From the sequence record OP795442: 64,000 nt of DNA; one strand, given 5' to 3'. Made by a program: the position numbers and the translations under genes. The stretch comes from Escherichia phage A7_1. Under the pieces are notes generated by a model. That model ran no database searches and had not been told where the DNA came from. It was given only the letters and a program-made list of their open reading frames with translations. Of the stretch, positions 20,152 through 63,900 are shown in pieces; the first letter of the stretch is position 1, and the number at the start of each line of letters is the position of its first letter.

Positions 20152-20154
20152 TTG

Positions 20155-24031: not shown

Positions 24032-25143
24032 ACCTTGTCTTGTGCCTCCAGGATAAGTTTTTCAACAATCTTCAGATCTGTTTTCTTTGGTAAGCTCGAT
24101 TGCTTATAAAGAACATCTGTGATCATTTTATCTTTTTCTTCAGCCCACTCAACAATTTCTTCATAGCGGTATTCACCATTTCGGATTGCGAGGAGTTCTT
24201 CAGCGTCTGGTCGATTCACTAAAACTTTACCTTCTGTGAGGATTTCTTCACCCATCCGAAGAAGCCGGACCAAATGCATAGCATGTTTAGTGTCGTAACC
24301 GAACTTCTCTTCCAGTTCATGACGCTTCTCGTTACGATTCTTAACCCACTCCCAGTAGTTGTGGTGTTTCTCCTTGGCCCATTTATGATCGTCAGCACAA
24401 TACTTAACAATCATCAGAGTCTTGCCTCTTTTAACTTCCTCTGGGATTTCTTCATAGTCTAGCTTACGGATAGAACCATCTTTATTAAACATTGGTTGAA
24501 CATCTTCACTACGATCTTCTACAACACCGTAAATGTTACCACCGTAAGGAACCAAAGTACAGAAGCCTTCCATGTTTTTAAATTTACGAACAAAGTCTTC
24601 GTACTTCAACTCACCTTCTCCGAGATAGCTCTGCACCAGACGGAAATAGTCAAATTGAGTTGGTGGCTCTTTTGGTTGCGGATTATTAATGTGTTTGTTG
24701 TGACCCTTGATCCGCTTTAACTGAGACATTGCATAACCACTGAAGCGAAATGCAACTTCACGAGACAGTAAGGAGTAGAAATGTTCTTTCATCTCTTTCC
24801 AAGCTTCGTGCTCGTACAATGTGGCTTTCGGATCAGTAAAACCCAGTTCAATGATATTTGGGTTCATCTTCGAAAACAGTTGAAGGAAAGTTCCCAATTC
24901 GTAGATCTTGGCATCCTCTTCACCAGGGATGTTTAATTCAGTAACCTCTTTGAATGGGGTACGAACCACATTTGGGGTTGCAACAAAAACCCCACGGATA
25001 TCAATATCACTACCTTCGTTATTCGTACCATACGCATGAGATCCTGCCAGACTCAACATCAGTACCTTCGCTACGTCTGGATGCTTTTCCATCTTCTCTA
25101 CGATACTTTTTACCTTTCCAGCACTCACAACTGAATTTTCCAT
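24016..25143 (-). CDS. Pol-beta-superfamily nucleotidyltransferase-like protein (375 aa)
   Basis: N-terminal GSHAYG...SDIDIRG motif (GS-x-D-x-D). Confidence 0.45.
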   Translation of the reverse strand: MENSVVSAGKVKSIVEKMEKHPDVAKVLMLSLAGSHAYGTNNEGSDIDIRGVFVATPNVVRTPFKEVTELNIPGEEDAKIYELGTFLQLFSKMNPNIIELGFTDPKATLYEHEAWKEMKEHFYSLLSREVAFRFSGYAMSQLKRIKGHNKHINNPQPKEPPTQFDYFRLVQSYLGEGELKYEDFVRKFKNMEGFCTLVPYGGNIYGVVEDRSEDVQPMFNKDGSIRKLDYEEIPEEVKRGKTLMIVKYCADDHKWAKEKHHNYWEWVKNRNEKRHELEEKFGYDTKHAMHLVRLLRMGEEILTEGKVLVNRPDAEELLAIRNGEYRYEEIVEWAEEKDKMITDVLYKQSSLPKKTDLKIVEKLILEAQDKVWKET

Positions 25144-26029: not shown

Positions 26030-26485
26030 TTACCCCTGTTTAAGCTTAAAAGATTTAAAGGCTTCGATAAAGTCCATTTCTTTTTGCGTGTATTTGTGGT
26101 CAATTGTATCAGCGAAAAGAGGGCAACGACCATCAACCAACTTCACATCCCACAGATGTTGAGGGAGAATAAATGCAATGGCTGTAAGTGCACCATTCAA
26201 AGAATCATTCTCCTCGCAGAAAAATGCGTAAGGAATCTTCTCTATGTTTGGAGCTAAAAATCCTTCTGCAAAATTAAGCATCTTAGATTGATAGCCTCCG
26301 TTCAACAAGATCATTGTTTGGTCTTTGCTTTGCCACTGATCTACAAGGTTGTATCTGTCATCATATCGATCGGCATAGGCAAAGCCATAATGACCTACAA
26401 GGTTTGCTGCTGCATGTGCTGCTTGGATACCTGCTTGGATTCCCATCATGTAGCTGTTTACCAATACGTACATCCGAGTTTTCAA
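26030..26485 (-). CDS. hypothetical protein, possibly peptidyl-tRNA hydrolase (Pth2)-like
   Basis: N-terminal MGIQAGIQAAHAA pattern recalled from PTH2; weak. Confidence 0.3.
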   Translation of the reverse strand: MKTRMYVLVNSYMMGIQAGIQAAHAAANLVGHYGFAYADRYDDRYNLVDQWQSKDQTMILLNGGYQSKMLNFAEGFLAPNIEKIPYAFFCEENDSLNGALTAIAFILPQHLWDVKLVDGRCPLFADTIDHKYTQKEMDFIEAFKSFKLKQG

Positions 26486-26802
26486 TTCTTACCTCCGAAA
26501 ATTCTTTTTGCAAATTTTTCATTACCTAACGTCATGTTGTAGAAAACTATAATTGAATAGACAATCCACGCAAGGACATAAAATAAAATCAAGAAAGGCC
26601 AGCCCACAAACCAAAACACTGTCATTATTAACCAGCCCGTCATAAGGAGTTTATAATTAACATTCCCGTGATTTAAAGGGTCAAGTAAGTTACTGTTCTC
26701 TGGCAGGGTGATACGAAACCCACCTTGACGAAGCTTGATCAAAAAGAACCAAGCAGCAGAACTTATAATGCAACATAAAATATATATCAGTAATCCTGTC
26801 AT
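26482..26802 (-). CDS. hypothetical membrane protein (106 aa), tandem paralog A
   Basis: FLLIKLRQGGF motif shared with neighbour; two TM segments. Confidence 0.5.
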   Translation of the reverse strand: MTGLLIYILCCIISSAAWFFLIKLRQGGFRITLPENSNLLDPLNHGNVNYKLLMTGWLIMTVFWFVGWPFLILFYVLAWIVYSIIVFYNMTLGNEKFAKRIFGGKN

Positions 26803-27128
26803 TTTTTAACTCCGAAGATCTTAGATAGTAATTTATCATTCCCGATAGTTACACCACAAAAACTTTTTACTCCGTATACTAGATACGACCCGATTGTAAC
26901 ACAGATAATGATCGGATAAACAAGATACCAAAAGAATGTTGCAAGTATCCACCCTGCCATCACCATACGTAAATTTACATTTTCGTTATTCAGTGGCTCC
27001 AGGATATAAATATCCTCACAATCTTTTGGGAAGGGGATGTTAAAACCCTTCTGTCGTAATTTGATCAGTAAGAACCAAAGCGGGCAACTGATAAAACAAC
27101 CGATCAAATAACCTTCAACCATTTTCAC
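26799..27128 (-). CDS. hypothetical membrane protein (109 aa), tandem paralog B
   Basis: FLLIKLRQKGF motif shared with neighbour. Confidence 0.5.
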   Translation of the reverse strand: MKMVEGYLIGCFISCPLWFLLIKLRQKGFNIPFPKDCEDIYILEPLNNENVNLRMVMAGWILATFFWYLVYPIIICVTIGSYLVYGVKSFCGVTIGNDKLLSKIFGVKK

Positions 27129-28413
27129 TCTCCTTCAATTTGTCAAGATATTGTGTAACGTATCTTACTTTTACATTTCGGATTCTATTCTTGATCTCTT
27201 CTGGACGTCCAGCAAATCTTTCAGAGATCTCTTTACTTTCTTTTGAGATTGCAACGCTGTTTTGAACAATCCCCGCCAGTGCTGAGAATAATACCAAAGG
27301 TTGAGTGTAGCTGTCAAACATTTTTTCAGGACCCCGACCACGAGCATCACAGATGCAAGCATCAATAAATTCAGAGAGGAATGCTTGGTCCTTTTCACCA
27401 CGTAAGGCTACTAACAAGTCATAAACTTTCTTTGGCTTCATTTCTTTGATACGGTGAAGTCGTGTATGATGCTCAGTTACAGCTAAAGCCAACTTCTTCC
27501 AATTATTGGGGACACCAAAGCGATCACAAACTTGTTCAGTTAACTTGATACCATGTTCTTCGTGACCGTGCAGTTTACCCGTTACCCAATAAATACATTT
27601 ACCTAAGTCGTGACACAGAACTGCCCACTTCACAGCTTCACTTGCACGAGTCGCCTGGGCATAATCCATGCAAAGTAAAGTGTGAACAAATGCATCACCT
27701 TCAGGATGGTGCTCCTTGGGTTGAACAACATCGTATAAATCCACAAGCTCAGGAAATTCCCCCAGTTGAGTCAACATACGGATCATTACCGAAGGTTTAT
27801 TCATTTCTGACTGATCACTAAAGCATTTCTTAATCTCTGCAAATTTACGCTCTTTTGGTAATGCACTTAAATCAACATCCTTGCACATTCCCCAAGTGTC
27901 AGGATCAATTGTAAACTCGCCTCCGTATCTGGCATGTAATCTGGCTAATCGATATACACGTAAAGGGTCTTCGATAAATGCCTTAATAGATACACAACGT
28001 AACCGACGAAGTTCAATATCAAGTGCACCACCGCAAGGGTCAATAATTTCACCCGTAGAAATATCCTTAGCGATCGCATTAATGGTCAAATCTCTTCGCA
28101 TCAGGTCTTGTTCGATTGTAACGTCTGGAGAGAACACAACTTCGAAGTCGTGATAACCAGGACCTGTTGATCTTTCTGTCCGAGCAAGAGCATACTCTTC
28201 CTTTGTCTCGGGGTGAAGGTACACAGGGAAAGCTGCACCAACCTTAGTAAATCCCTTCTCAATCATTTCTTCATGGGTCGCTCCAACTACAACGTAGTCA
28301 CGATCCTTGCTTTCAACACTCATTAGTTCATCGCGAACTGCACCACCTACCAAGTAAACTTTCATTCCTTCTTCTTCCATTCTTTCCAATTCTGCATGCC
28401 CGCTCATAGCCAT
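27115..28413 (-). CDS. cca: tRNA nucleotidyltransferase (CCA-adding enzyme) with HD domain
   Basis: LVGGAVRDELM and DRD head motifs; HHPEGD and LCHDLGK HD-domain motifs. Confidence 0.8.
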   Translation of the reverse strand: MAMSGHAELERMEEEGMKVYLVGGAVRDELMSVESKDRDYVVVGATHEEMIEKGFTKVGAAFPVYLHPETKEEYALARTERSTGPGYHDFEVVFSPDVTIEQDLMRRDLTINAIAKDISTGEIIDPCGGALDIELRRLRCVSIKAFIEDPLRVYRLARLHARYGGEFTIDPDTWGMCKDVDLSALPKERKFAEIKKCFSDQSEMNKPSVMIRMLTQLGEFPELVDLYDVVQPKEHHPEGDAFVHTLLCMDYAQATRASEAVKWAVLCHDLGKCIYWVTGKLHGHEEHGIKLTEQVCDRFGVPNNWKKLALAVTEHHTRLHRIKEMKPKKVYDLLVALRGEKDQAFLSEFIDACICDARGRGPEKMFDSYTQPLVLFSALAGIVQNSVAISKESKEISERFAGRPEEIKNRIRNVKVRYVTQYLDKLKESENG

Positions 28414-30827: not shown

Positions 30828-31145
30828 TTAAATTCCGATTAAATATTTAAACTTCCCGTCGTTCTCTGCGATCTTGTGGATTACATAGAACCAATTTTCA
30901 ATTCCGTCTTCATCTTCCTCTTTCACACGATCACCAGTTTTCAACTCAACCTCGGAAACGTACTCCTTACTTTCAAGGAAATACTTCCACTGAACCATGT
31001 CTTTAAAATTACAGATTAGTTTATTTTTGCCATCAGTCGTCCAAAGGTCCTGATTGACCCACATACCAACAACGAAATTCTTTTCTTTCTTAGGACGACC
31101 AAGTGCATAAGTGTTGTTTAACATCTTTGCTTTATCTAAGACCAC
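30828..31145 (-). CDS. hypothetical protein (105 aa)
   Basis: Track ORF. Confidence 0.5.
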   Translation of the reverse strand: MVLDKAKMLNNTYALGRPKKEKNFVVGMWVNQDLWTTDGKNKLICNFKDMVQWKYFLESKEYVSEVELKTGDRVKEEDEDGIENWFYVIHKIAENDGKFKYLIGI

Positions 31146-31863
31146 GTTTTGACTCCAAGTTAACTAAGAAACTCTCAAGCACTGCGATGTTGTCTTCTTT
31201 CCAAAGATTAAGTGTTCTTACACCATTCTTCTTTGCCAGATTGACTGCTGTTGCAGTGCCGCCTTTAGGATTACCCGTCTTTGTTTCCTTTGCGTAGTAT
31301 ATCACAAATTTACTTTGCATCAAGTAGGCATTTGAAAGATTTTTACCAAAAATTTGGTGTACGTTTCTTTCGTGTAATTTCCTTGCCCCTTGACTCAACT
31401 TGTCCCATCCACCATGAACTTCCTTTATCCATTCCCATCGCATTTCTGTATGTTCTGGAAATTCTTTATCAATCGTGTTCAGGGAGATATTATACAGATC
31501 TTTAAGTCCTTGTCCACCTTTAAAGTTGTCCCAAGGAACATATATCTCTGCAAGTTTGCTCGGTGATTGAGTCATATTGCAATCTTCATGAAACTTCTGC
31601 ATACCTCTTTGGAAAGCTGCATCTGCACCATCTGCACCGCCAGATCGTAATGTATATCCGACCCTTGCTAATCTCCAACCCGCATCTTCCATAATTTTTA
31701 ATACTTCTTCAGGGGCCTCCCTTGAACCTATTCCTGTATAAGCTGGCACTTTAACCTCCTTCATCTTCAGTTGACCAGTACCCATTAACTTTTTTCCAAA
31801 GTCTTTGGTTATCTGATCCCCTGAATCTTTTAGTTGTAGGTTTGTTTTCATCATACTTGCCAT
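31132..31863 (-). CDS. DprA/SLOG-like Rossmann-fold protein (243 aa)
   Basis: GIGSR...RSGGADGADAAFQRG...GGTATAVNLAKKNG pattern. Confidence 0.4.
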   Translation of the reverse strand: MASMMKTNLQLKDSGDQITKDFGKKLMGTGQLKMKEVKVPAYTGIGSREAPEEVLKIMEDAGWRLARVGYTLRSGGADGADAAFQRGMQKFHEDCNMTQSPSKLAEIYVPWDNFKGGQGLKDLYNISLNTIDKEFPEHTEMRWEWIKEVHGGWDKLSQGARKLHERNVHQIFGKNLSNAYLMQSKFVIYYAKETKTGNPKGGTATAVNLAKKNGVRTLNLWKEDNIAVLESFLVNLESKRGLR

Positions 31864-32233
31864 CCATGATTAAGTCAACGTATTTCTTTATTTCCTCATC
31901 TAAGTCTTGAAAAAGATACCCTGTCCACACCATGATATCTTTACTCTCACCAAAGCACGACTTTACTTCCTTGATAATTCTTTTTACAACATCAATATTC
32001 TCATGGTCAAGAGGTTCTCCACCCATAATTGACAATCCACTGATAAAATTTCGAGAAAGATCTTTTTTCAAACTCTCCATATCTTCATCTGTGAATTCTT
32101 TCCCATACCTATATGACCAAGCCTTTTGGTTAAAACAACCCTTACACTTATGACTGCATCCACTAACCCAGAGAGAGGTTCTTACCCCCTCTCCATTGAT
32201 GAAGTCTGTGCTTTCATATCCGCAAATGTTCAA
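31751..32233 (-). CDS. nrdG: anaerobic ribonucleotide reductase activating protein (radical SAM)
   Basis: CSHKCKGC cysteine cluster; directly downstream of nrdD. Confidence 0.7.
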   Translation of the reverse strand: MNICGYESTDFINGEGVRTSLWVSGCSHKCKGCFNQKAWSYRYGKEFTDEDMESLKKDLSRNFISGLSIMGGEPLDHENIDVVKRIIKEVKSCFGESKDIMVWTGYLFQDLDEEIKKYVDLIMDGKYDENKPTTKRFRGSDNQRLWKKVNGYWSTEDEGG

Positions 32234-34308
32234 ACGTGTTTTTCCCTTTGTAAGACCTCCTGCATCTTACCTTTGTTATAAGGTCTTGCATTTGGTGCAG
32301 ATAAATAACCAGAAACCCTTCGGATTACTGAAATTGTTCCCTCTTCTTTGTTCCCGCAACAAGGGCATTCAAAACCTTTTGCTGTTGCATGAAACTCACC
32401 ACTAAAGTTACACTTAAAGCACTGGTCCACAGGTTGATTGACACCAAAGTAAGGTATCGTATCATAACCATAGTCGATCAATGTTTCAAGCGCCTTAATG
32501 TTATTTTTCAAGTTTGGCGTTTCAACGTACCCGATATTACCACCAGAACTTATTGTTGCAAAACCTGACTCGTACTTCCATTTGCTGAAAGGATCTGAAT
32601 GTTCCCAAACAGGTGCATGAAAGGAGTTTGTAAGGTAATCCCGATCAAGCACCTCTGGATATTTTTCCTTAAGCTTAGTAGCGAAACGATAACATAAACT
32701 CTCAGCAGGTGTTCCGTAGAGGCTAAAGGAAATACGTGAGCGCTCTTTAAATTCATCACATTTTATTTTCATGTGATTGAGGATCATTACCGCCAAACCC
32801 TTATCCTTTTTCCCAACAATAATCTCAACAGTTTCAGATAATCCCACATACCCGACACTGATTGAGGCATACCCATCATAGAATAACTTACCTATCTTTT
32901 CGTTAGCTCCCAGTCTTGCCAAAGCTCCTTCCATAAAAAGCGTGGGGTTTTGAGAAGCTTTTACATTTTTAAGTCGGTTGACACGAACCATATGCGATTC
33001 ATATGCGTTTTCCATGTGCTGGTCAAGAAGTGCATAAAAATCACCACCTTTTGCTTTGTACTCTGCTGCAATCAGCGGTAAATTTATAGAGACAACACCT
33101 AAATTGAATCGACCATCATACTTCTCTCCATGTTCTGTCGTAAATTTGGAAAGGAAGCTCCTACAACCCATACTTGTAACTTTCCCATCTGAAGATCCAG
33201 TAACCTCTTTATTTAATGGCACAGAGATGAAGTCAGGATAGATCCTTTCAACACAGCACTGCATTGCCATTTGTTTAAGGTTATAATTAACATCACCAGG
33301 TTTCAGGTTTACACCATCTTGCAAAAAGAAGACAACCTTCGGAAAAACTGGAGTTACCTTATCCTTGCCAAGCCCCTCAGTATGGACCTTTAGATAGTTT
33401 TTGGTAATCATTCTACCAAACTCTGAAGTTTCAAGACCCATACTGATCGTAATGAAAGGCGATTGACCGTTAACACTCATTAAAGTATTAACCTGATAAA
33501 CCAGTGTCTGCATTGCATCATATACATCACGATCTGTCATTTCCATTGCTAAAGATTCATTAGGTTTTCCGATCTTTTCTAAAAACTCAATATTCTTTTT
33601 GTGGCTCATCTCAACATATGTTTTCAAACCCTCATCGATATGAGCACATGTTTGTCCTCCGTATTGACTGGATGCCACAGCCTGAATGATTTGAGTCAGA
33701 ACTGTTGTTGCAACACCAATCGACTTAGGTTTTTCGATCTTCGCATTTCCAATCTTAAAACCATTTTCAAGCATGTCCCGATAGTTAACAAGACAACAGT
33801 TAGTTAATGGACTAACCAAATAATCCAAGTCGTGAATGTGACCATAACCTTCATTGTGCCAAGCAGCGAGGTCTTTTGGCAAGATCTGGTTAATACTGAC
33901 ATGCTTGCTTAAAATACCTGCCAGCAAGTCCCGATGAGTATTTACCAAATTGCTAGGTTTGTTTGCATTCTCACGAGTAAATTCTTCAGCCGTCTGATCC
34001 AAAAATCCGCTAATATCTGAATAAAGTTTACCTTTGCCTTCACGAACTGAATCCCGATCATGACGGTATTCAATATAGCATCTGGCAGCATCTTGAAGAT
34101 TTTTCTGACTCATTAAGGTATTCTCAACAACCTTATGAATCTCTTCTACAGATATACGATCTTTATCTTCAATCTGACTAACGACTTCAGTAATGAGTTT
34201 ATCAACATCGGCTTTAGTGCCTGCGGATAAAAGAGCGCCCCGAAGGGCTGCTCCGATCTTATCCGTGCACAAGGTTTCTTCACGCCCGTCACGTTTTGCA
34301 ATAATCAA
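32230..34308 (-). CDS. nrdD: anaerobic ribonucleoside-triphosphate reductase
   Basis: C-terminal glycyl-radical motif RVSGYL and CPCCG zinc site; 692 aa. Confidence 0.85.
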   Translation of the reverse strand: MIIAKRDGREETLCTDKIGAALRGALLSAGTKADVDKLITEVVSQIEDKDRISVEEIHKVVENTLMSQKNLQDAARCYIEYRHDRDSVREGKGKLYSDISGFLDQTAEEFTRENANKPSNLVNTHRDLLAGILSKHVSINQILPKDLAAWHNEGYGHIHDLDYLVSPLTNCCLVNYRDMLENGFKIGNAKIEKPKSIGVATTVLTQIIQAVASSQYGGQTCAHIDEGLKTYVEMSHKKNIEFLEKIGKPNESLAMEMTDRDVYDAMQTLVYQVNTLMSVNGQSPFITISMGLETSEFGRMITKNYLKVHTEGLGKDKVTPVFPKVVFFLQDGVNLKPGDVNYNLKQMAMQCCVERIYPDFISVPLNKEVTGSSDGKVTSMGCRSFLSKFTTEHGEKYDGRFNLGVVSINLPLIAAEYKAKGGDFYALLDQHMENAYESHMVRVNRLKNVKASQNPTLFMEGALARLGANEKIGKLFYDGYASISVGYVGLSETVEIIVGKKDKGLAVMILNHMKIKCDEFKERSRISFSLYGTPAESLCYRFATKLKEKYPEVLDRDYLTNSFHAPVWEHSDPFSKWKYESGFATISSGGNIGYVETPNLKNNIKALETLIDYGYDTIPYFGVNQPVDQCFKCNFSGEFHATAKGFECPCCGNKEEGTISVIRRVSGYLSAPNARPYNKGKMQEVLQREKHV

Positions 34309-34310
34309 CC

Positions 34311-35057
34311 TTAATTACCCCCTTTAAGATCCTTTTCACGAGCCTTGACAACTGCCTTACAGAATGGACTACGAACGATTTCTTCACTAGTCGCTTCAAC
34401 ATAATCGGCAAAGTCGTAAAGTTCATGACGATCAATGAATTCGATTGCCCATTCTAATCCAGTTTCACGATTACGCATATCGTTCTGTGTGATATCGCCT
34501 AAGCAGAACAGCTTAGAACTTTCACCTTTACGAGTCATGATCGTGTAAGCCGTATCTTCATCTGTGTTCTGAAACTCATCGACAATAACAACCGCATTAT
34601 CGAAAGAACGTCCACGGATATATTCCAGAGGAACAAATTCAATGTTACCACAACCCAACTGAGTTTCAAAGAAACCGTGACCGTAGCGTTGCTGAATAAC
34701 CTGAATAAGTGCCTGAAGGAAAGGCTCGAATTTCTCACGGATAGTCCCAGGTAGTAACCCGAGGCTGTTCCCCATTCCCAATGTTGGTCGAGTAAGGACG
34801 ATCTTTTCAATCTTACCTTGCTTCAGCCAATCAATAACGGTACTCATAATGACAAATGTCTTACCTGTACCCGCCGGAGCGTTAACGAAAACAACTTCCT
34901 TCTCGTTAACCAGAGATAACAATTCCTTTTGGAATCGGTTCTTTGGAGTAATAGGTTTTTTCAACTCTTCATAGGCTTTAGGTGTTACCTGACGGCCTTT
35001 TGAACGCTTCTCTTCACGACGATCCTGACGAGATTTACGATTAGTATGACGTTGCAT
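34311..35057 (-). CDS. phoH: PhoH-like ATPase
   Basis: Walker A GTGKT; LTRP, EFVPLEYIRGRSF and DEFQN motifs. Confidence 0.8.
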   Translation of the reverse strand: MQRHTNRKSRQDRREEKRSKGRQVTPKAYEELKKPITPKNRFQKELLSLVNEKEVVFVNAPAGTGKTFVIMSTVIDWLKQGKIEKIVLTRPTLGMGNSLGLLPGTIREKFEPFLQALIQVIQQRYGHGFFETQLGCGNIEFVPLEYIRGRSFDNAVVIVDEFQNTDEDTAYTIMTRKGESSKLFCLGDITQNDMRNRETGLEWAIEFIDRHELYDFADYVEATSEEIVRSPFCKAVVKAREKDLKGGN

Positions 35058-35072
35058 AGAGTACCTCGCTTC

Positions 35073-35456
35073 TTAAGGGTAGAGTTTATGAGGGAGTTGG
35101 AAATGAGGACCATCTTTAAATGAAGTCCAATCACCGCCCCACTCAATCGGGATGTTTAATTCTTTTGCTGCATCCTTAACAGCTTCTGCCATCGGGTAAT
35201 AATATTTCCAGTCCCAAGTAACCGATCCGTTAACCAAAGGCCACAAATCTACAGCATGTCCGGTCAGATGACGACTATTCATCGTTTTACTCTTACCTTC
35301 TGCAACATACTTACGTTGGGTTTCTATTGTACGTAGACCTTCACCAACAGTAAAGTCAATCGCACTCTTTTTGATTGCCAGTTTCACAACTTCAACCAAG
35401 TCGGGATGAACGCCCTTAAGACGTTCAATACTCCGTTTACCTAATACAAATCCCAT
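35073..35456 (-). CDS. L-alanyl-D-glutamate peptidase (M15 endolysin)
   Basis: SRHLTGHAVDL and GPHFQL zinc-site motifs; resembles T5 endolysin from memory. Confidence 0.75.
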   Translation of the reverse strand: MGFVLGKRSIERLKGVHPDLVEVVKLAIKKSAIDFTVGEGLRTIETQRKYVAEGKSKTMNSRHLTGHAVDLWPLVNGSVTWDWKYYYPMAEAVKDAAKELNIPIEWGGDWTSFKDGPHFQLPHKLYP

Positions 35457-35464
35457 TAAGTCTC

Positions 35465-35875
35465 CTAGTGAGTAACTTCAGTTTTTACATACCCCAAGAT
35501 CAAATCATCTTGGATCTCTTTCATCGCCACAGACATTTTCAACTGAACTTCAGCGATAGCTTCTGAATATTCAATTTCGTCTAGAAAGCGTTGAAGATGT
35601 TCAGTGGATAACGAATCCATATTTTCCACGATCGCATTCTGCATTACCTTTTCGTAATTTTCAGAAGTCATCGCTTCAACGATCTTCTGTTGATTTCGGA
35701 CCTTAATGATATCTTCTTCTGTCTTATCTTCAATACCTTTCAGGAAGTCCAGCGTCATCACTGCCACTTCAAGATTTGCGTCAATCGCCTTGCCAACAAC
35801 GTACTTTGCAATTTTATGAAGCAGACGCTCACGATCAGTCAGTTCTTTTTCAATTTTATCAACGGTATTAGTCAT
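35465..35875 (-). CDS. hypothetical coiled-coil protein (136 aa)
   Basis: Track ORF, charged helical composition. Confidence 0.5.
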   Translation of the reverse strand: MTNTVDKIEKELTDRERLLHKIAKYVVGKAIDANLEVAVMTLDFLKGIEDKTEEDIIKVRNQQKIVEAMTSENYEKVMQNAIVENMDSLSTEHLQRFLDEIEYSEAIAEVQLKMSVAMKEIQDDLILGYVKTEVTH

Positions 35876-36168
35876 TACAGATCTCCCAGGTCATCGTTAT
35901 TGAAGTCAAGTTCTACTTTGCTCGGCAAATTCTTTGCTACCAGTTCAGTGTAGCCTCCAACGTACTCGCTGTCAATAAAAATCTGAGGAACTGTACGTGG
36001 AACATAACCAACAGCATCGCTTACCTTTTTAACCATCTCTTGCAGATTGCCAGAGTTTGCACCCACGTCAATATACTCATACTCATAACCTTTCTGATCA
36101 AGGAGGGTTTTTGCATTGTCACAGAACGGGCAGTTTACTTTACCAAAAATCACATTACTCATTATCAA
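35875..36168 (-). CDS. nrdC: glutaredoxin-like protein (NrdC-like)
   Basis: CPFCDNAK active site; resembles T4 NrdC from memory. Confidence 0.7.
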   Translation of the reverse strand: MIMSNVIFGKVNCPFCDNAKTLLDQKGYEYEYIDVGANSGNLQEMVKKVSDAVGYVPRTVPQIFIDSEYVGGYTELVAKNLPSKVELDFNNDDLGDL

Positions 36169-36199
36169 TCTCCCTTATACAGAAAACAAAACTATTTAA

Positions 36200-36427
36200 T
36201 CATGCTTCTTTGAACGTTGCAAGCACTGTTGATTCAATTTCGTAATAATTTTCACGAACTTTAATATCTTCATTCAATGCCCAAGGTACACCAAGATCAG
36301 TGCTCACATATTGGAGATCATCTGATCCCTCATAAACAGAATTCTGTTCAAACACAAAACCTTCCACTGCAAAAGTACAAATCAGCTTTTTCACTTTTAT
36401 AATCTCCAGGTTAAGGGCCTTTCGGCC
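36200..36427 (-). CDS. hypothetical protein (about 75 aa)
   Basis: Internal ATG chosen to avoid overlap with nrdB. Confidence 0.4.
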   Translation of the reverse strand, partial: GRKALNLEIIKVKKLICTFAVEGFVFEQNSVYEGSDDLQYVSTDLGVPWALNEDIKVRENYYEIESTVLATFKEA

Positions 36428-36434
36428 CATTTTA

Positions 36435-37532
36435 TTAAAGTTCGAAATCGAAGTCAGATGCACTCACTGAAGAGTCAACCTGACCCGACAGATATTGACC
36501 ATTTTCTAGTTCCTGTGGGGTTACCTGAACGTTTTTGGTATTCAGGTGGCTATTGATCCAAGGAATAGGGTTCTTCAGCGGTTTATCAATGAAACTATCT
36601 AAACCAACTGCTCGCATACGTTGATCAGCCATATAATCTACGTATTGCCACAGAATCTCTTTATTCAGTCCAACCATCGAACCATCTTTGAACAGGTATT
36701 CTGCCCAATCACGTTCTTGCTGTCGTGCCTGCAAGAACAATTCACGAGCCTCATCTTTGCAATCTTCTGCAACTCGTGCAATAAGGTCACCTTCACGACC
36801 ACTTTGCATTTCATTAAGAATATACTGAGTACCAGACAAATGCAAGGCTTCATCACGGGCGATCAGTTCAATAATGTTGGTGTTACCAGTCATGATACTA
36901 CGCTCACCAAATGCAAACGAACATGCAAAGCTCACATAGAAACGAATTGCTTCCAGAGCATTAATACTGTGCATACACAGGTACAGTGCTCGTGCATGTG
37001 CATAACGATCAACTGGCAGGTTCAAAGCGTAACGACTATTCAACTGGAATAAATCGTCATACAACTTCGTAACCGCATCAGCACGTTCCAGAATTTCTGG
37101 AGTTTTCATGATCTCATCAAGAATTGCAGAAGGATCACTAAATACATTTCGAATAATGTGTGTATATGAACGACTGTGGATTGTTTCACTGAAACCCCAA
37201 GTCTCAATCCAAGTTTCCAAAGCTGGATCGGAAACGATTGGAAGTAATACTGCATTCGGACCACGCCCTTGAACGGAATCAAGCAACGTTTGATACTTAA
37301 GATTACTAATGAAAATATGTTTTTCATGGTCAGGCAATCCCATAAAGTCAATTCGATCACGGGTTACATCGATCTCTTCCGGTCGCCAGAAGAATGCCAA
37401 CTGCTTTTCTGTCAGCTTTTCAAATTTGTTATGTTTTTGCTTGTCGTAACGAGAAACGTTAACAGACTCACCAAAGAACATCGGTTGTTCCATGAAATCA
37501 AACTGGTTTTTATTAAAAGTCGTGTAGCTCAC
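36435..37532 (-). CDS. nrdB: ribonucleotide reductase class I beta subunit
   Basis: 365 aa; position and ferritin-like helical composition. Confidence 0.75.
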
Positions 37533-37587
37533 TTATTATCTCCTCTTCGTTAATCTGAAAACCATTATACCTGAACTTACCAAGAAA

Positions 37588-37929
37588 TCAATAGTTATTT
37601 CTTAAAATTTCAATCCCATACCGCTTAAAGACTTCCTTTGCTGCCATAAACTTTTGTGCTGCACTTGGATTTGAAGTGTGAACAAACAGAACAGCAGGAT
37701 ACAGGATCGGTTTGCCAAACACAAGTTTTTCTTCTAACATTTCTAAGCAGCGGTAACCTTCTTTTGAATCTTCACCAAGGTCATTGTCGAAGTGCCATTC
37801 TGTTACCCGACGATACATTTTATTGGGGTCATCAAGGAACTCGATAAACTGGTCAGAATTTTTAAACCAGATGGCATCATCATGCCCGTAATCTTTTGGA
37901 TCTCTCAAATCATCAAGCCAAATCTTCAT
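37588..37929 (-). CDS. hypothetical protein (113 aa)
   Basis: Track ORF. Confidence 0.5.
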   Translation of the reverse strand: MKIWLDDLRDPKDYGHDDAIWFKNSDQFIEFLDDPNKMYRRVTEWHFDNDLGEDSKEGYRCLEMLEEKLVFGKPILYPAVLFVHTSNPSAAQKFMAAKEVFKRYGIEILRNNY

Positions 37930-37983
37930 CTTTTCCTCCTGTCTCGTTTATGTGGTTTATTATACGGATTACCTTACCAAAGT

Positions 37984-38011
37984 CAATAAAAAACCGCCCC
38001 GAAGGGCGGTT
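37984..38011 (-). terminator. intrinsic terminator (AAAAAACCGCCCCGAAGGGCGGTT family)
   Basis: GC stem with GAA loop, then T-run on minus strand. Confidence 0.6.
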
Positions 38012-38015
38012 AATT

Positions 38016-38204
38016 TTAATTGTACTTGTTGAGAATGTTAAACATATCTTTTGCAATATATTTATTGTCTCGACAACCAGCAAGGTTGTTACGAAGTGCA
38101 GCCACATAGATCTCTGTGCCGCAACCTGGGTAGGATGTGCCGAATCTTTTTGCCTGTCTTTTAAATGTCCAACGATCAATAAAGAACCAAGAGATAAATT
38201 TCAT
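38016..38204 (-). CDS. hypothetical small protein (62 aa) between two identical hairpins
   Basis: Strong RBS GAGGAGG 5 nt before ATG. Confidence 0.45.
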   Translation of the reverse strand: MKFISWFFIDRWTFKRQAKRFGTSYPGCGTEIYVAALRNNLAGCRDNKYIAKDMFNILNKYN

Positions 38205-38217
38205 ATTCCTCCTCAGA

Positions 38218-38236
38218 ACCGCCCCGAAGGGCGGTT
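38218..38236 (-). promoter_or_regulatory. GC hairpin ACCGCCCCGAAGGGCGGT without T-run
   Basis: Same stem as the terminator family but followed by an RBS on the minus strand. Confidence 0.4.
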
Positions 38237-38244
38237 ATTTATTG

Positions 38245-40503
38245 TCACAGTTTACAAGCGCCAGATTCGCAGCCTTCATCCTCTTCATCTTCACCATCGC
38301 GAGTTTCTTGATAGTAAACAGTCTTCAGGCCAATCTTGTAAGCATACATCAGGTCACGCAGCACAATCTTAATCGGCAGTTTGCCACCTGGATAATCCCA
38401 AGGTTTGTAGAAGGTATTGGTCGAGATCGATTGGTCAATAAACTTCTGGATGATAGCCATCAGGTTAAGATAAGCTGTCGGTCCATTCATATCCCATTTG
38501 TACTCGTACACCACACCTTCCTCACCAACACCAGGAACCAGCGTCGGAAGCATACCCGCAGGTGACTTCTTAAACGTCACTGGACCACGAGGAGGTTCAA
38601 TGCCGTTGGTAGAGTTAGTAATCTGGCTTGATGTTTCACAAGGCATCATTGTGGACAACGTTGAGTTACGTAATCCGTGCAATGCGATATCCAGACGCAA
38701 ACTTTCCCAATCTTGTTGCAATTCTGCGGTATGCAACTGATCAACTTCTTTCTTGTAGCGATCGATAGGTAAGATGCCACGAGAATAAGATGTTTGATCG
38801 TACCACTCACAAGAACCACGCTCTTTCGCTAACTGAACAGAAGCTTTCAGCAGGTAGAACTGGAATGCTTCCGCAAGTTTATGAACTTCATTGGCAGCTT
38901 CCGGTGAACTATATTTAAGTCCACGTTTAGCTAAGTAATACGCCAAGTTAGTCCAGCCAATACCCAAGGTACGACGCAGTAACGTTTTCTCTGCTGCAAG
39001 AACAGGGTAGTTCTGATAATCAAGCAGGTTATCAAGAGCACGTACCGTGATCATAACAGGTTCTTCTAAATCTTCAAGCTTCTCAATCTTCCCGAGGTTG
39101 ATTGCTGATAAAGTACACAGTGCAACTTCACCAGAATCTTTCGGGTCCTTAATGTTATTGATCGGAGCCGTAGGTAATGCAATTTCCATACACAGGTTAG
39201 ATTGCTTAATCGGAGCCACTTCAGGAAGGAACGGACTGTTGCTGTTGCAATGGTCAACGTTCTGAATATAAATACGACCTGTCTGGCTACGTTCTTGAGC
39301 TAAACGAGTGAAAGCATCAGTCGCTTCAAGCTCTTTGCGAGGAATGGAAGGGTCTGCTTCCAATTTCTCATACAGTTCTGCAAATGCTTCTTGATCCGAG
39401 AAGAAGTATTTATACAGATCACCGTTTGCTACGTTTGGATGGAAGAAACTGATCTTGCCACCTTTCTGTAAGCGAGTATAGAAGAACTTGTTGATCTGAA
39501 CACCATAATCAACATGTCGTGCACGGGTGCTTTCAGTACCACGGTTGTTCTTCATTACGATCAGGTTTTCAAAGTCCCAGTGCCAAATCGGGTAGAAGTA
39601 GTTAGCTGAAGCTTTACGCAGACCACCTTGAGATGCCCAACCTAAAGATTCTTGATACATTCGAACAATGCCAACCGTACCTGCATGTTTAACTTCCCCG
39701 CCGCGAATAGGAGCGTCCTGTCCACGAATAGCACCAAAGTTCAAACCGATACCTGCTCGCTGTGCTGCATACTTACCTTGTGCTTCAACTGCTGCAAAGA
39801 TCTGGTTAATATCATCACCGGACTCAATCAGTACACAAGAACTGAATTGTCGAGTCGGAGTTCGTACACCACCCATAATCGGAGTAGGCAGAGAAACCTT
39901 CATGGTAGAAACCATATTGTACAGATCAATCACTTTTTGTAGACGCTTCTTAGGATCTTCTTTACTCATCAAGCACATTGCGATCAGCATCAGTGCTGTC
40001 TGAGGAGATTCAAAGATTTCACCTGTTACACGATCCTTGACTAGATATTTATCTTCGTACTGACGCATAGCTGCGTAAGTGTAATCAAAATCACGGTCAT
40101 GATCGATAACTGTATCTAAAAATTCAATCTCTTCTTTCGTGTAATCTGAAATAAGATGTTCATCGTATTTACCGCGAGCTACAGTCATAAGAATGTGAGC
40201 GTACAGTGGACGAGGTTCAAAACCACCATAAGCCTGCTTACGCAGTTTAAACAGAAGCAGACGTGCTGCTGGATACTGATAGTTTGGACTTTCTACACTA
40301 ATTAGGTCCGCTGCGGACTTGATCAGGGTATCGTGAATCGCGTCGGTTTCTACACCATCATACATCTGAATCTGAGATTTCATCAGGATATCAGAAGGAC
40401 TTACATCATTAACCCCTTCACAAGACCAAACTACAACACGGTTGATCTTCTCAGCTTCGAATTTCTCTACAGAACCATTACGCTTACGAACAGTAATACC
40501 CAA
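38245..40503 (-). CDS. nrdA: ribonucleotide reductase class I alpha subunit
   Basis: 752 aa; C-terminal CESGACKL redox tail; typical NrdA length. Confidence 0.85.
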   Translation of the reverse strand: MGITVRKRNGSVEKFEAEKINRVVVWSCEGVNDVSPSDILMKSQIQMYDGVETDAIHDTLIKSAADLISVESPNYQYPAARLLLFKLRKQAYGGFEPRPLYAHILMTVARGKYDEHLISDYTKEEIEFLDTVIDHDRDFDYTYAAMRQYEDKYLVKDRVTGEIFESPQTALMLIAMCLMSKEDPKKRLQKVIDLYNMVSTMKVSLPTPIMGGVRTPTRQFSSCVLIESGDDINQIFAAVEAQGKYAAQRAGIGLNFGAIRGQDAPIRGGEVKHAGTVGIVRMYQESLGWASQGGLRKASANYFYPIWHWDFENLIVMKNNRGTESTRARHVDYGVQINKFFYTRLQKGGKISFFHPNVANGDLYKYFFSDQEAFAELYEKLEADPSIPRKELEATDAFTRLAQERSQTGRIYIQNVDHCNSNSPFLPEVAPIKQSNLCMEIALPTAPINNIKDPKDSGEVALCTLSAINLGKIEKLEDLEEPVMITVRALDNLLDYQNYPVLAAEKTLLRRTLGIGWTNLAYYLAKRGLKYSSPEAANEVHKLAEAFQFYLLKASVQLAKERGSCEWYDQTSYSRGILPIDRYKKEVDQLHTAELQQDWESLRLDIALHGLRNSTLSTMMPCETSSQITNSTNGIEPPRGPVTFKKSPAGMLPTLVPGVGEEGVVYEYKWDMNGPTAYLNLMAIIQKFIDQSISTNTFYKPWDYPGGKLPIKIVLRDLMYAYKIGLKTVYYQETRDGEDEEDEGCESGACKL

Positions 40504-40514
40504 TTTATTTCTCC

Positions 40515-40763
40515 TTATTTAGTTTCAGTTTTAGTTGCAGACTTGTTGATCAGGGTATCATATTTATCGACATTTTCAAGTGTCGGTTCACCTAATCGAA
40601 CAGTCAATCCAGAATACTGATCGTGGTAAGTATCGTCATAACCAAACGAATCATCAACCAGATCATTAAACTGCAACCAACCTAAGTATTCATGCTTACT
40701 TGCAAAACCACGCTGGAACCATTTAGTTTGCTCAACCGGAACTGTCAATTTAGCTTTACCCAT
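40515..40763 (-). CDS. hypothetical protein (82 aa)
   Basis: Track ORF. Confidence 0.45.
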   Translation of the reverse strand: MGKAKLTVPVEQTKWFQRGFASKHEYLGWLQFNDLVDDSFGYDDTYHDQYSGLTVRLGEPTLENVDKYDTLINKSATKTETK

Positions 40764-40777
40764 AATATTTCTCCTTA

Positions 40778-41251
40778 TTATTTAATCAGTGTCTCAGAAA
40801 ACTCAGGAAGATCCATAACGATTGTTTCGGAACGATCTTCTTTTCGTGTGTATTTACGGGTATTCACTTTTTCAACAACCGGAATATCAAAATCCAAAGA
40901 ATTAACAAAAGCCGTCGCTTTAGAACTACTAACATCTAGGATATCCATCTTTTCGTAGATATCTACAAGTGGGAATTCTGATTTGTCACGTAGACGTCCA
41001 GAAAACACTGTTGTTTCACGACAAAGGTACGGCTTATCGATACAACGTACATTCACTCGATTAATTCGATCAATCTGACAAGGCTTATACTCTCCAGTTT
41101 CTTCATTAAGAATAGATACTTGAAATCCGATTAGGTGAAGAACTTTACGAAGCGTTTTATCATCCTTTGGATCAAACTTCATGATTTTTGCACATTCCAG
41201 AATGAAATCCAGAGTTACTGCACCGTATTTGACTTCTTTCTTAAAACCCAT
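40778..41251 (-). CDS. hypothetical protein (157 aa)
   Basis: Track ORF. Confidence 0.5.
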   Translation of the reverse strand: MGFKKEVKYGAVTLDFILECAKIMKFDPKDDKTLRKVLHLIGFQVSILNEETGEYKPCQIDRINRVNVRCIDKPYLCRETTVFSGRLRDKSEFPLVDIYEKMDILDVSSSKATAFVNSLDFDIPVVEKVNTRKYTRKEDRSETIVMDLPEFSETLIK

Positions 41252-41338
41252 AATTTTCTCCTCGACAACTCTTTAAAAGAGGGAGCTAATTGCTCCCATT
41301 CCTCGTATAATATAAAATTAACTAACCAATGTCAAACA

Positions 41339-42376
41339 TTATTTTGCAACATTTCCAGGAATTAGTTGTCGATGCTGGACAAAACCTTTCAAGTTACCAC
41401 TCCAGAAATTACCATCACGATCTACATGAGTAATTCCTTCTTCCCAACTGGTAGGGTCCCAAGCCACATTCACCATTGGAACATTAGGGATAAAATCTTC
41501 CTCTGTTTCAGCGATCTCTTTAGCTTGGTGTTCAAAAGGGGACGCGTGTACCTTTTTACCACCCACAAGTCGAGAATAAATATCTAAAGCTTTATCTTTT
41601 GTACTGTCAAGTCGGCGATAACTTACCTGACCGCAGCAAGAAGAGGAAATTCGTAAAGCCTCTTCTTCACTGAGCATAACAGGCTTGCCATCTTCATCCT
41701 CTACATAATAACCAAAGAATACGAAAAAGTCATCACCAAACAATCCAATATTTTCGTAAGCATGTTCAACATAGGGAGTATGCCAAACCCCAGGCTCCAA
41801 TTTTTCTGGATGAGAAGCATCATACGCTTCTTTCATTTTCTTTGCAAGCACTTCGATTGTTGGATCTGCATCTGCATCTACACGCAACCAGAAGAAATTT
41901 TCAAACTCGGTTGCTGTGACTACCGTCTTCATCATTTGGAAAGGTTCAATCAGGCGGTTGGCAATTTGCTTATGATACCCTGCCGTCTCAAATCGTTCAG
42001 CCCATTCAGATGCAGACTCTGCCGCTTTAACCCAAGCTTCTCGGCCTGTACAGAAAAGATTGTGAGCCAGACCATCTTCACCATCAACCCAATCATACCA
42101 AACTTTACCGTCGTGTTCCACACCATGATCTTGCATACCTGGTTTGTTAGCCCCAAATCGAACAGGCATTGCTGTGTTATTACGAACAAGCTCAATCATC
42201 TTCTTGATCGGAACTGCACGAGAAGACATTGCGTTTCGACTAAACAGTCGATGGGTCATCAACTCAGAATGAATAAAACGAGGATACGTCAATTCAAAAG
42301 TTGTGATTCGAGAATTTGTTACCGTACCAATAGAGTCTGCAATAATTTTAACTTCAATTTGATTCAGCTTGTCCAC
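41339..42376 (-). CDS. thyX: ThyX-like flavin-dependent thymidylate synthase (tentative)
   Basis: THRLFSRNAMSSR segment resembles the RHR-x7-S ThyX motif; 345 aa is long for ThyX. Confidence 0.45.
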   Translation of the reverse strand: MDKLNQIEVKIIADSIGTVTNSRITTFELTYPRFIHSELMTHRLFSRNAMSSRAVPIKKMIELVRNNTAMPVRFGANKPGMQDHGVEHDGKVWYDWVDGEDGLAHNLFCTGREAWVKAAESASEWAERFETAGYHKQIANRLIEPFQMMKTVVTATEFENFFWLRVDADADPTIEVLAKKMKEAYDASHPEKLEPGVWHTPYVEHAYENIGLFGDDFFVFFGYYVEDEDGKPVMLSEEEALRISSSCCGQVSYRRLDSTKDKALDIYSRLVGGKKVHASPFEHQAKEIAETEEDFIPNVPMVNVAWDPTSWEEGITHVDRDGNFWSGNLKGFVQHRQLIPGNVAK

Positions 42377-42379
42377 TTA

Positions 42380-42607
42380 TTACTCCTTATTCTTTTCTTT
42401 AAGTACATTCAAATTATATGGTAGATAGCCTTCTAATTCTAACCAATCACCTTTTTCATTAATATATTCTAAAGATTCAATCTTGTCACCCTTTTTCTTT
42501 AGAACATTTAAAACTTGATCAACATCAAGAGAGTTATCGGAAAGCTGAAGTTTATCATCAACATACATACCTTCCCAATCATATCCTCGGAATATTACAA
42601 TTTTCAT
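42380..42607 (-). CDS. hypothetical protein (75 aa)
   Basis: Track ORF. Confidence 0.4.
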   Translation of the reverse strand: MKIVIFRGYDWEGMYVDDKLQLSDNSLDVDQVLNVLKKKGDKIESLEYINEKGDWLELEGYLPYNLNVLKEKNKE

Positions 42608-44052: not shown

Positions 44053-44079
44053 AATAAAAAACCGCCCCGAAGGGCGGTT
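44053..44079 (-). terminator. intrinsic terminator (same hairpin family)
   Basis: ACCGCCCCGAAGGGCGGT then T-run on minus strand. Confidence 0.6.
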
Positions 44080-51986: not shown

Positions 51987-52012
51987 AAGAAAAACCGCCC
52001 CTAAGGGCGGCT
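51987..52012 (-). terminator. intrinsic terminator
   Basis: CCGCCCCTAAGGGCGG then T-run on minus strand. Confidence 0.55.
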
Positions 52013-61403: not shown

Positions 61404-61420
61404 AAGTTCTTTTGAATATA

Positions 61421-63170: not shown

Positions 63171-63200
63171 TCAGCCTCCCTCATTTGGGAGGCTTTTTTA
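63171..63200 (+). terminator. intrinsic terminator after the tRNA cluster
   Basis: Hairpin AGCCTCCC-TCATTT-GGGAGGCT then TTTTTTA. Confidence 0.7.
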
Positions 63201-63241
63201 TTTGTGCTTTCGGTGATAAAATATCCAAAAGGAGGATTTAT

Positions 63242-63601
63242 ATGTTACCCGCTAAAAAATATTTCATTTACGCAATGTTCGGCGTTGCGTTATTTACGTC
63301 TGGAAAACTGTATCTCGGACACGTAGAGTCTGTTGGATATGACAAAGGCTACGATGCTGCAAACACGGCTTGGATAAAGAAAGCTACTGAGTACAAAGGA
63401 AAGCTTGACTCTACATTGGAAGAGAATAAGAGGTTGAATGAAGAACTTTCTTATGCAAATGCAAAACGGATCATCGCTGAGGAAAAATTACGTGATGAAG
63501 TAGAGGCAATGAGAATCGACTATGCAAAATCTAAAAAGGGACAAGAAATATTTATGGATGATGAGATAGTTGATATCTATAACAAATCACTGGGGGAATA
63601 A
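63242..63601 (+). CDS. i-spanin-like protein (N-terminal TM helix, coiled coil)
   Basis: ATG 63242 with strong RBS AAAAGGAGG; TM segment then charged helical region. Confidence 0.4.
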   Translation: MLPAKKYFIYAMFGVALFTSGKLYLGHVESVGYDKGYDAANTAWIKKATEYKGKLDSTLEENKRLNEELSYANAKRIIAEEKLRDEVEAMRIDYAKSKKGQEIFMDDEIVDIYNKSLGE

Positions 63602-63900
63602 TGAAGAAGATTATCGCCGGAATTGTCCTTTGTTTTGGTCTTGTTGGTTGTCAGAGTAAAGAAATTTGTGGGCCTACTGAAGAAGTTAAGATAGAAAAGC
63701 TGATCGAAAAGCCGGATCTTGAACTTATGAAGAAAGAAGAACCTAAAATGACTCTGGAAAAACGCTCTGCAAAGACAACTGTTGCTGACGTTCTTAGTCA
63801 TAACAATCTTCGTGCTGCAAGAATAGAAAGACGTGCTGAAGGATTACAGACCTACGTTTGTAATATTTTTAAAGAAAATCCACCAGAGTTCTGCAAATAA
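63601..63900 (+). CDS. o-spanin-like lipoprotein
   Basis: Signal peptide with lipobox LVGC; start overlaps upstream stop. Confidence 0.45.
   Translation: MKKIIAGIVLCFGLVGCQSKEICGPTEEVKIEKLIEKPDLELMKKEEPKMTLEKRSAKTTVADVLSHNNLRAARIERRAEGLQTYVCNIFKENPPEFCK

Follow-up and report, generated by a model that had tools for sequence, protein, structure and literature searches.

The genome of Escherichia phage A7_1 carries, in the stretch analysed here (64,000 nucleotides (nt) of sequence record OP795442, referred to below as the window), a block of genes for nucleotide metabolism in which an endolysin gene and phoH are embedded. The block is ~10.6 kb long and runs head to tail on the minus strand, from the start codon of a ThyX-like gene at 42376 to the stop codon of nrdG at 31751, and its G+C content of 0.39-0.44 and its minus-strand skew run on unbroken from the flanks. 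Domains were assigned by Pfam and PHROG profile searches of the open reading frames (ORFs) of the window, with a sequence search of PDB for the M15 protein and NrdB, and the gene identities, the synteny, the levels of orthology and the absence of introns and homing endonucleases were observed directly in this analysis. The original prediction, made from the sequence letters, had called the block a mosaic and had listed its genes from the ThyX-like one to nrdG. The list stands (Table 1) with one correction: where a single unknown ORF was placed between nrdA and nrdB, there are two, of 62 and 113 amino acids (aa), and the latter carries a recognisable cREC_REC domain (PF20274).

Two ribonucleotide reductase (RNR) systems can be read from the block. 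The Ribonuc_red_lgC match of NrdA covers profile positions 1-522 of 523 (E 3e-125), with CESGAC at the C-terminus in a reading of the sequence, and NrdB reaches 495 bits against E. coli NrdB (R2) in PDB, whereas NrdB of phage 4MG reaches only 102 bits. With full-length R1 and R2 domains and an R2 close to the E. coli type, NrdAB can be assigned to class Ia. Likewise, NrdDG is predicted to be a class III enzyme from its NRDD domain, its C-terminal glycyl-radical domain, in which RVSGY can be read, and its radical-SAM activase with a CxxxCxxC-type motif, read as CSHKCKGC. It had also been claimed that no group I intron or homing endonuclease interrupts nrdA, nrdB or nrdD, and this proved correct: all three are single ORFs spanning their full profiles, Rfam found no Intron_gpI in the whole window, and none of the ORFs of the block matched the HNH, LAGLIDADG or GIY-YIG families in Pfam or PHROG.

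Table 1. Positions of the genes and sites of the block, and of related features elsewhere in the window.
Feature	Position	Strand	Basis
i-spanin/o-spanin pair	63185..63900	+	N-terminal hydrophobic segment, lipobox, overlapping stop/start codons
Recombinant patch: 3' part of 157-aa ORF, ThyX, 75-aa ORF (42380-42607)	41050..42600		identities in 100-nt windows
ThyX-like, long-form, 345 aa	41339..42376	-	Pfam Thy1 E 8e-10; PHROG 85 'thymidylate synthase' E 3e-107
Conserved ORF, 157 aa	40778..41251	-	PHROG 5557 E 1e-52
Conserved ORF, 82 aa	40515..40763	-	PHROG 5488 E 2e-27
NrdA, class Ia RNR large subunit, 752 aa, uninterrupted	38245..40503	-	ATP-cone + Ribonuc_red_lgN + Ribonuc_red_lgC
Hairpin AACCGCCCTTCGGGGCGGTT directly after nrdA stop codon	38217..38236	-	exact copy, one of three in the window
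Conserved small ORF, 62 aa	38016..38204	-	PHROG 14771 E 4e-5; flanked by two hairpin copies
Second hairpin copy with T-run (37992-38011), then promoter-like site	37959..38011	-	consensus match
cREC_REC domain protein, 113 aa	37588..37929	-	PF20274 E 5e-18, profile positions 1-84/88
NrdB, class Ia small subunit, 365 aa	36435..37532	-	Pfam Ribonuc_red_sm E 2e-44
Small ORF, 87 aa by longest start (64-87 aa as annotated in relatives)	36200..36463	-	ORF call
Glutaredoxin, NrdC-like	35875..36168	-	Pfam Glutaredoxin E 2e-16; syntenic orthologues 34-45% identity
Conserved soluble ORF, 136 aa	35465..35875	-	PHROG 12288 E 6e-24
M15 L-alanyl-D-glutamate endopeptidase, putative endolysin, 127 aa	35073..35456	-	Peptidase_M15_4 E 5e-15; PHROG 465 'endolysin' E 8e-66
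PhoH-like predicted ATPase, 248 aa	34311..35057	-	Pfam PhoH E 9e-53
NrdD, class III anaerobic reductase, 692 aa, intron-less	32230..34308	-	ATP-cone + NRDD 1-562/562 (E 2e-162) + Gly_radical
Empty group I intron insertion site in nrdD (approximate)	33157..33165	-	breaks in the alignments of contigs L013/L014
NrdG, radical-SAM activase of NrdD, 160 aa	31751..32233	-	Fer4_12 E 3e-42, Radical_SAM
DprA-like gene, just 3' of the block	31132..31749	-	PHROG 768 E 1e-63
Second lysis-related locus: SleB-like hydrolase homologue (26030-26485) and two ORFs 5' of it	26030..27128	-	tblastn, hydropathy scan

The nearest relatives leave little doubt about what this block is. It is collinear, at ~94-95% nucleotide identity, with the E. 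coli phages UPEC06, A73, W70, A5-4 and LTH01, all of which are filed under Vequintavirinae, while four further megablast records (three at 99% or more and one at 97%) are matches of 33-37 nt to an nrdA motif and a terminator hairpin. W70, A73, A7-1 and A5-4 belong to Septuagintavirus, a proposed genus that is sister to Certrevirus, and RNRs of both class I and class III are reported from its genomes, along with glutaredoxin, thymidylate synthase and an M15C peptidase (Cortes-Martin et al., 2024; PMC11370258). The whole block is shared with this group, including cREC between nrdA and nrdB and nrdDG after PhoH, and its genes are 92-100% identical to those of UPEC06 with the exception of ThyX; the window differs in having another ThyX allele and another 75-aa ORF. 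Judged from the ~94-95% over the block only, the window phage may count as a species of its own under the 95% rule. The Septuagintavirus genomes are reported to have five tRNA genes each (PMC11370258), and Rfam gives six tRNA matches in the window, one of them weak (33.9 bits), at 61323-63121, just 5' of the spanin genes.

The order of genes continues into Certrevirus. In phiTE, a Pectobacterium phage of the namesake species of this genus (NC_020201), a thymidylate synthase gene is followed by two hypothetical ORFs, nrdA, a small ORF between two annotated terminators, nrdB, hypothetical ORFs, the glutaredoxin gene (Grx), a hypothetical ORF, a 127-aa M15 endolysin, PhoH, NrdD and NrdG, and in the Certrevirus POP15 the order is the same except that nrdDG is missing. 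Amino acid identities to phiTE and POP15 are fairly even over all shared genes of the block, ranging from 29% for small ORFs to 83% for the M15 protein, with 74-78% for NrdA, NrdB and NrdD (NrdA 75-78%), 71% for PhoH, and 75% for ThyX in POP15. There are differences as well. The nrdA and nrdB genes of phiTE and CB7 contain HNH-bearing introns and inteins, and an HNH gene lies beside their thymidylate synthase gene, whereas the window has none of these; nrdB, free of intein and intron, is 1098 nt long here against 2064 nt in phiTE, and inteins in reductase subunit genes of Certrevirus are described in the CB7 paper (PMC7344957). In addition, in phiTE the spacer between nrdA and nrdB is free of cREC and nrdG is not followed by a DprA-like gene, and the phiTE thymidylate synthase, of 227 aa, shows no BLASTP match to the ThyX of the window. 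Because Certrevirus phiTE and Septuagintavirus share the gene order, the arrangement is already known and ordinary for this published group, and the unusual order that the original prediction implied is in fact the standard one, an outcome which the prediction itself had named as its refutation. We thus hold, with high confidence, that the block is a conserved deoxynucleotide-supply module of a Septuagintavirus-type myovirus (Vequintavirinae), whose order has been inherited vertically.

The small ORFs also keep their places. Orthologues of the 157-aa ORF occupy the same position in phiTE, POP15, PVP-SE1, 4MG and KpS8 (38-74% aa identity), those of the 82-aa ORF are syntenic at 52-66% identity and the one in metagenomic contigs L013 and L014 matches DUF8047, and the 136-aa ORF has orthologues 5' of the endolysin gene in phiTE and POP15 (35-42%). 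The 62-aa ORF corresponds in position to POP15_246, with 31% identity (E 2e-8), and is annotated as a coding sequence in UPEC06 and A73, and the 87-aa ORF has a weak 30% match to phiTE_150 and no family match in Pfam or PHROG. The DprA-like gene lies directly 3' of PhoH in POP15, PVP-SE1, 4MG and KpS8; here its longest ORF, read from 31863, would have 113 nt in common with nrdG (31751-31863), and the start annotated in A73, just past the nrdG stop codon, is more likely than that one.

More distant genera retain the frame of the block with other contents. In Seunavirus PVP-SE1 and 4MG and Mydovirus KpS8, a long-form ThyX (57-60% aa identity), two ORFs, nrdA, nrdB and Grx are followed, further along, by an endolysin, PhoH, and DprA-like and ClpP-like genes, so that the endolysin and PhoH again lie within the nrd block. 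Identity to the counterparts in these genera is 38-60% for ThyX and its small neighbouring ORFs, but no more than 35%, 23% and 31% for NrdA, NrdB and PhoH, respectively (NrdA and PhoH in PVP-SE1 and 4MG), the type of NrdB differs, the endolysin is of a lysozyme family instead of M15, and cREC is located ~15 kb away, close to Rnl1. In Vequintavirus (the rV5-like magaca) the series is ThyX, two ORFs, nrdA, nrdB, Grx, nrdD, nrdG, two ORFs, PhoH and, further along, ClpP-like, with nrdD split by an HNH homing endonuclease gene. The slots for NrdAB, for the endolysin and for thymidylate synthase thus appear, from these comparisons, to have received enzymes of another type between genera. By sequence, NrdB is near the E. 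coli-type R2 and the M15 protein near the T5-type L-Ala-D-Glu peptidase, the endolysin of T5 and RB49. T4 has the same set of class Ia NrdAB, a glutaredoxin-like NrdC and class III NrdDG, but its genes are scattered, its thymidylate synthase is ThyA, and its nrdD is among the nrd genes invaded by introns or homing endonucleases. Since individual slots have different histories, the word mosaic in the original prediction is defensible in this sense, while the unusualness that it implied finds no support. Outside the block, an ATP-dependent DNA ligase gene at 54774-56153 (DNA_ligase_A_M, OB_2) has no BLAST match to the 4MG ligase in spite of an equivalent position, and this slot also seems to hold a non-orthologous enzyme.

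The position of nrdDG is variable as well: the pair comes after PhoH in the window, phiTE and CB7, PVP-SE1 has it between Grx and the endolysin, and POP15, 4MG and KpS8 lack it. The genes are 75% identical to those of phAPEC8, and an insertion of nrdDG specific to this clade, from phAPEC8-like phages, was considered and rejected: phiTE, CB7 and PVP-SE1 carry nrdDG too, at 74% identity (the aa identity of NrdD to both phiTE and PVP-SE1).

How can an endolysin gene come to lie among reductase genes? The best PDB matches of the M15 protein are 8q2g (E 3e-45), which is named peptidoglycan L-alanyl-D-glutamate endopeptidase, 2mxz, the T5 endolysin (E 1.5e-19), and ChiX (5opz), and SRHL...AVD and GPH are conserved in the M15 alignment. 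The protein can thus be classed with the T5-type L-alanyl-D-glutamate endopeptidases, with zinc binding and activity predicted. A recent insertion of the endolysin gene, together with phoH, into the nrd operon by horizontal transfer would make this a new mosaic island, as the original prediction implied, and in its favour the next-best phage matches beyond the closest relatives are in two unrelated phages, Yersinia phage vB_YenM_39 (71%) and RB49 (60%). Seunavirus and Mydovirus have a lysozyme in the slot instead of M15, and therefore the slot was refilled at least once in the history of the subfamily. However, phiTE and POP15 carry an M15 gene of 83% identity (phiTE_147 and POP15_241) in the identical slot between the same flanking orthologues, so that any replacement predates the split of Certrevirus and Septuagintavirus, and an endolysin which is at least as conserved as its neighbours, the reductase subunits at 74-78%, is not a recent arrival. 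Neither the endolysin gene nor phoH differs from its flanks in composition. A recent insertion is therefore extremely unlikely, and the M15 gene and phoH are, judged by their orthologues, long-standing residents of the block. PhoH lies directly 3' of the endolysin in phiTE, POP15, PVP-SE1, 4MG and KpS8, and this adjacency, kept across the swap of M15 and lysozyme, could reflect regulatory or functional coupling rather than inertia, although we consider this unlikely.

The M15 gene stands apart from other genes of lysis. No holin or spanin gene adjoins it as in a classic lysis cassette, a hydropathy scan found neither a transmembrane segment nor a signal peptide in the M15 protein, and at a threshold of 1.6 it found no ORF with a hydrophobic segment in the whole block (31.7-42.4 kb). 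The 136-aa ORF just 5' of the endolysin gene was considered as a holin and ruled out, as it has no hydrophobic segment. The spanin-like pair, which had been predicted to lie far from the endolysin, is indeed physically separated from it. The ORF at 63185-63601 has the N-terminal hydrophobic segment YFIYAMFGVALFTSGKLYL, below the 1.6 threshold, of an i-spanin, and the o-spanin ORF at 63601-63900 has the lipoprotein signal LVGC, with its start overlapping the stop of the former. In the magaca annotation, an i-spanin gene lies just 5' of the terminase genes. According to the CB7 paper, Certrevirus, rV5 and PVP-SE1 have no classic lysis cassette, and their spanins adjoin the large terminase gene in a conserved placement (PMC7344957). 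Hence the dispersed lysis genes, with spanins beside the terminase, match the published state of the subfamily.

A second candidate holin-lysin locus is found ~8 kb downstream of the M15 gene. Its hydrolase gene (26030-26485) is 40-42% identical by tblastn to the SleB-like hydrolases KpS8 gp183 and PVP-SE1 gp162, and the two ORFs that precede it, 26482-26802 and 26799-27128, each have at least two hydrophobic segments. A SleB-like hydrolase and, overlapping it, a class II holin candidate are described for CB7 as well, in addition to peptidase CB7_190 and NrdDG (PMC7344957). It might be possible that lysis is done by the SleB-like hydrolase with the adjacent two-transmembrane proteins as holins, and that the M15 protein has an auxiliary or other role: a hydrolase and a membrane-protein pair are present in the window, and no holin adjoins the M15 gene. 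On the other side, the M15 protein has close homologues among L-Ala-D-Glu endolysins of solved structure (T5 and PDB 8q2g), it sits in the slot of the annotated endolysin of PVP-SE1 (gene 146), and the two enzymes could act jointly. We regard the auxiliary role as possible but as clearly the less probable of the roles for M15, and continue with M15 as the putative endolysin.

The ThyX-like protein at the head of the block is a divergent member of its family. Its match to Pfam Thy1 (39.2 bits against a gathering score of 24.8) is partial and covers profile positions 53-190 only, and the family to which it belongs, PHROG 85, is very common in phages, with >6,800 homologues. As to whether it has the ThyX fold or another, Foldseek with an AlphaFold2 model built on 32 homologues (predicted local distance difference test, pLDDT, 80) gave as top matches in PDB ThyX/FDTS or PolB throughout, with a Foldseek probability of 1.0; the template modelling scores, normalised by target length, are only ~0.42-0.53 because of extra elements in the ThyX-like protein. 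The canonical ThyX signature is RHRxxSxxxxSxR(Y). The motif of this protein was read from the sequence as THRLFSRNAMSSR and its region as THRLFSRNAMSSRA, which retains the H, R, S, S and R of the core. The 32 homologues all share H42, S51 and R53, and conservation is at least 90% at R43 and S46. Thus, on the evidence of the model, the 345-aa protein is a long-form, divergent enzyme of the ThyX fold.

Does this enzyme make thymidylate? The best structural match is PolB (4p5a), a methylase of uridine and deoxyuridine monophosphates (UMP and dUMP), the protein is ~100 residues longer than canonical ThyX, it has no PDB relative by sequence, and the first and last positions of its motif are substituted, and one might hence suppose a nucleotide methylase or hydroxymethylase of the ThyX fold that uses another substrate, like PolB, and possibly feeds DNA modification instead of acting as thymidylate synthase. 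However, the core of the motif (HRxxSxxxxSxR) is kept across the 32 homologues, the gene occupies the slot of thymidylate synthase beside the RNR genes and a 5'-deoxynucleotidase gene, and we saw no second thymidylate synthase in the window. Moreover, the 227-aa gene in the same slot of phiTE, without a BLASTP match to this one, is annotated as thymidylate synthase, which argues for an equivalent function. Another substrate is thus very unlikely for this enzyme, which is predicted to be a thymidylate synthase of long form.

The ThyX gene also marks a place of exchange. Over 1.55 kb, the patch in Table 1 is mostly 97-100% identical in 100-nt windows to the Logan contig L013 (two windows at 91-92%) and only 50-86% identical to UPEC06, while on either side of it identity is 99-100% to UPEC06 and 58-88% to L013; A73 behaves as UPEC06 does, with 99-100% in the flanks and 50-86% in the patch. 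The ThyX allele and the 75-aa ORF have 75-77% nucleotide identity to UPEC06 and A73, 97.5-100% to L013 and 92-98% to L014. These two contigs, assembled from metagenomes (L013 from ERR2241701 and L014 from SRR19226112), were reached with the 99%-identical P0001 as the ThyX query; the exact ThyX sequence of the window was not found in public assemblies, nor was a close match to the patch found among phage records. The patch is an allele swap by homologous recombination, which has brought in a foreign ThyX allele. The same contigs differ from the window in nrdD. That of L013 contains a group I intron (19183-19447; Rfam RF00028, 73.3 bits against a gathering score of 50), and that of L014 an insert of ~760 bp (19411-20163) with a 169-aa ORF and a sub-threshold HNH_3 match. 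The group I intron of nrdD is thus polymorphic in presence and absence among close relatives, and the gene is intron-less here.

The gene between nrdA and nrdB that had been called unknown brings another kind of movement. Its product is 63-72% identical to proteins whose genes adjoin, or are one ORF from, the Rnl1 RNA ligase gene in 4MG, KpS8 and magaca and lie near Sir2 as well, and elsewhere in Vequintavirinae and Stephanstirmvirinae, too, cREC adjoins or is close to Rnl1 RNA ligase and Sir2. cREC, the cyclic-phosphate processing receiver, has been described in systems linked to RNA ligase or NAD+ (Iyer et al., 2021; PMC7824862), whereas in the window its neighbours are nrdA and nrdB and no such linkage is seen. 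UPEC06 mislabels the gene as 'RNA ligase 1 and tail attachment protein'. As the spacers of phiTE, POP15 and PVP-SE1 show no cREC, its position between nrdA and nrdB appears specific to this clade. A tblastn search (E <= 0.01) for the Rnl1, Sir2, AAA and lysozyme homologues of other Vequintavirinae found none in the window or in A73 1-100 kb, with A73 100,001-105,385 covered only through the collinear window. Two genes of an RNA-repair type are nearby, for an RlaP-family nucleotidyltransferase (E 7e-19) and a CCA-adding enzyme with an HD domain (24016-25143 and 27115-28413), and therefore tRNA-repair functions would be kept although no Rnl1 was found. One may speculate that cREC, having left the neighbourhood of Rnl1 and Sir2, acts on a nucleotide-derived cyclic phosphate independently of RNA-end repair, an idea related to the coupling of endolysin and PhoH mentioned above; we consider it unlikely, though if it were true, signals from host defence such as cyclic ADP-ribose (cADPR) or 2',3'-cyclic nucleoside monophosphates (NMP) would be examples of its substrates.

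The surroundings of cREC are also rich in signals. The 20-nt G+C-rich hairpin AACCGCCCTTCGGGGCGGTT (minus strand) has three exact intergenic copies in the window, where none is expected by chance, at 37992-38011, 38217-38236 and 44060-44079, with a near copy at 51993-52012. It is annotated as a terminator in the Certrevirus P7_Pc, and phiTE has an annotated terminator at the site equivalent to the copy after nrdA; it may act as a terminator here. A putative sigma-70-like promoter, found by consensus match (TTGACT-16-TATAAT, 37959-37986), lies 5' of the cREC gene, and in POP15 the identical hairpin with the same promoter directly precedes nrdB. In T4-type phages, such hairpin-plus-promoter units have been suggested to serve as substrates for recombination. 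The consensus matches to promoters and terminators at ~41.3 kb and 37.96-38.24 kb hint that the block is transcribed as several units and not as a single operon.

Some of these observations fit poorly with an ordinary module inherited as a whole, and they have to be weighed together. The ThyX-like protein is so divergent that neither its single sequence nor a 5-sequence profile found a match in PDB, and at the ends of its motif the first R has become T and the last Y has become A. In magaca no endolysin gene precedes PhoH, and the lysin gene is located elsewhere, near DNA ligase; thus the adjacency of endolysin and PhoH is common to four genera but not to the whole subfamily. With a second hydrolase locus in the window, either the M15 protein or the SleB-like one could be the true endolysin. 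Finally, no described genus outside this clade has cREC between nrdA and nrdB. The order shared with Certrevirus and Septuagintavirus still makes vertical inheritance of the module by far the most probable account.

How would the module serve the phage? From what is known of the families we infer the enzymatic roles, the timing of expression and the identity of the main endolysin. NrdA and NrdB, with glutaredoxin as reductant, would produce deoxynucleoside diphosphates (dNDPs) under oxygen, and NrdD, activated by the radical-SAM protein NrdG, would produce deoxynucleoside triphosphates (dNTPs) anaerobically, as is expected for a coliphage of the gut. The long-form ThyX would convert dUMP to deoxythymidine monophosphate (dTMP). 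Without an export signal, the M15 endopeptidase would presumably accumulate in the cytoplasm until it is released by a holin encoded elsewhere, for which the ORFs at 26.5-27.1 kb are candidates, and the spanins next to the terminase gene would then disrupt the outer membrane.

The block marks the window as that of a Septuagintavirus-type coliphage, and its main use is correct annotation; its layout of nucleotide-metabolism and lysis genes is the one published for Certrevirus and relatives. It provides, at the same time, a local example of how a conserved block evolves, through slot-for-slot replacement, relocation of nrdDG and of cREC (the latter in a lineage seemingly without its usual partners), an exchange of alleles over 1.55 kb and polymorphism of an nrdD intron.

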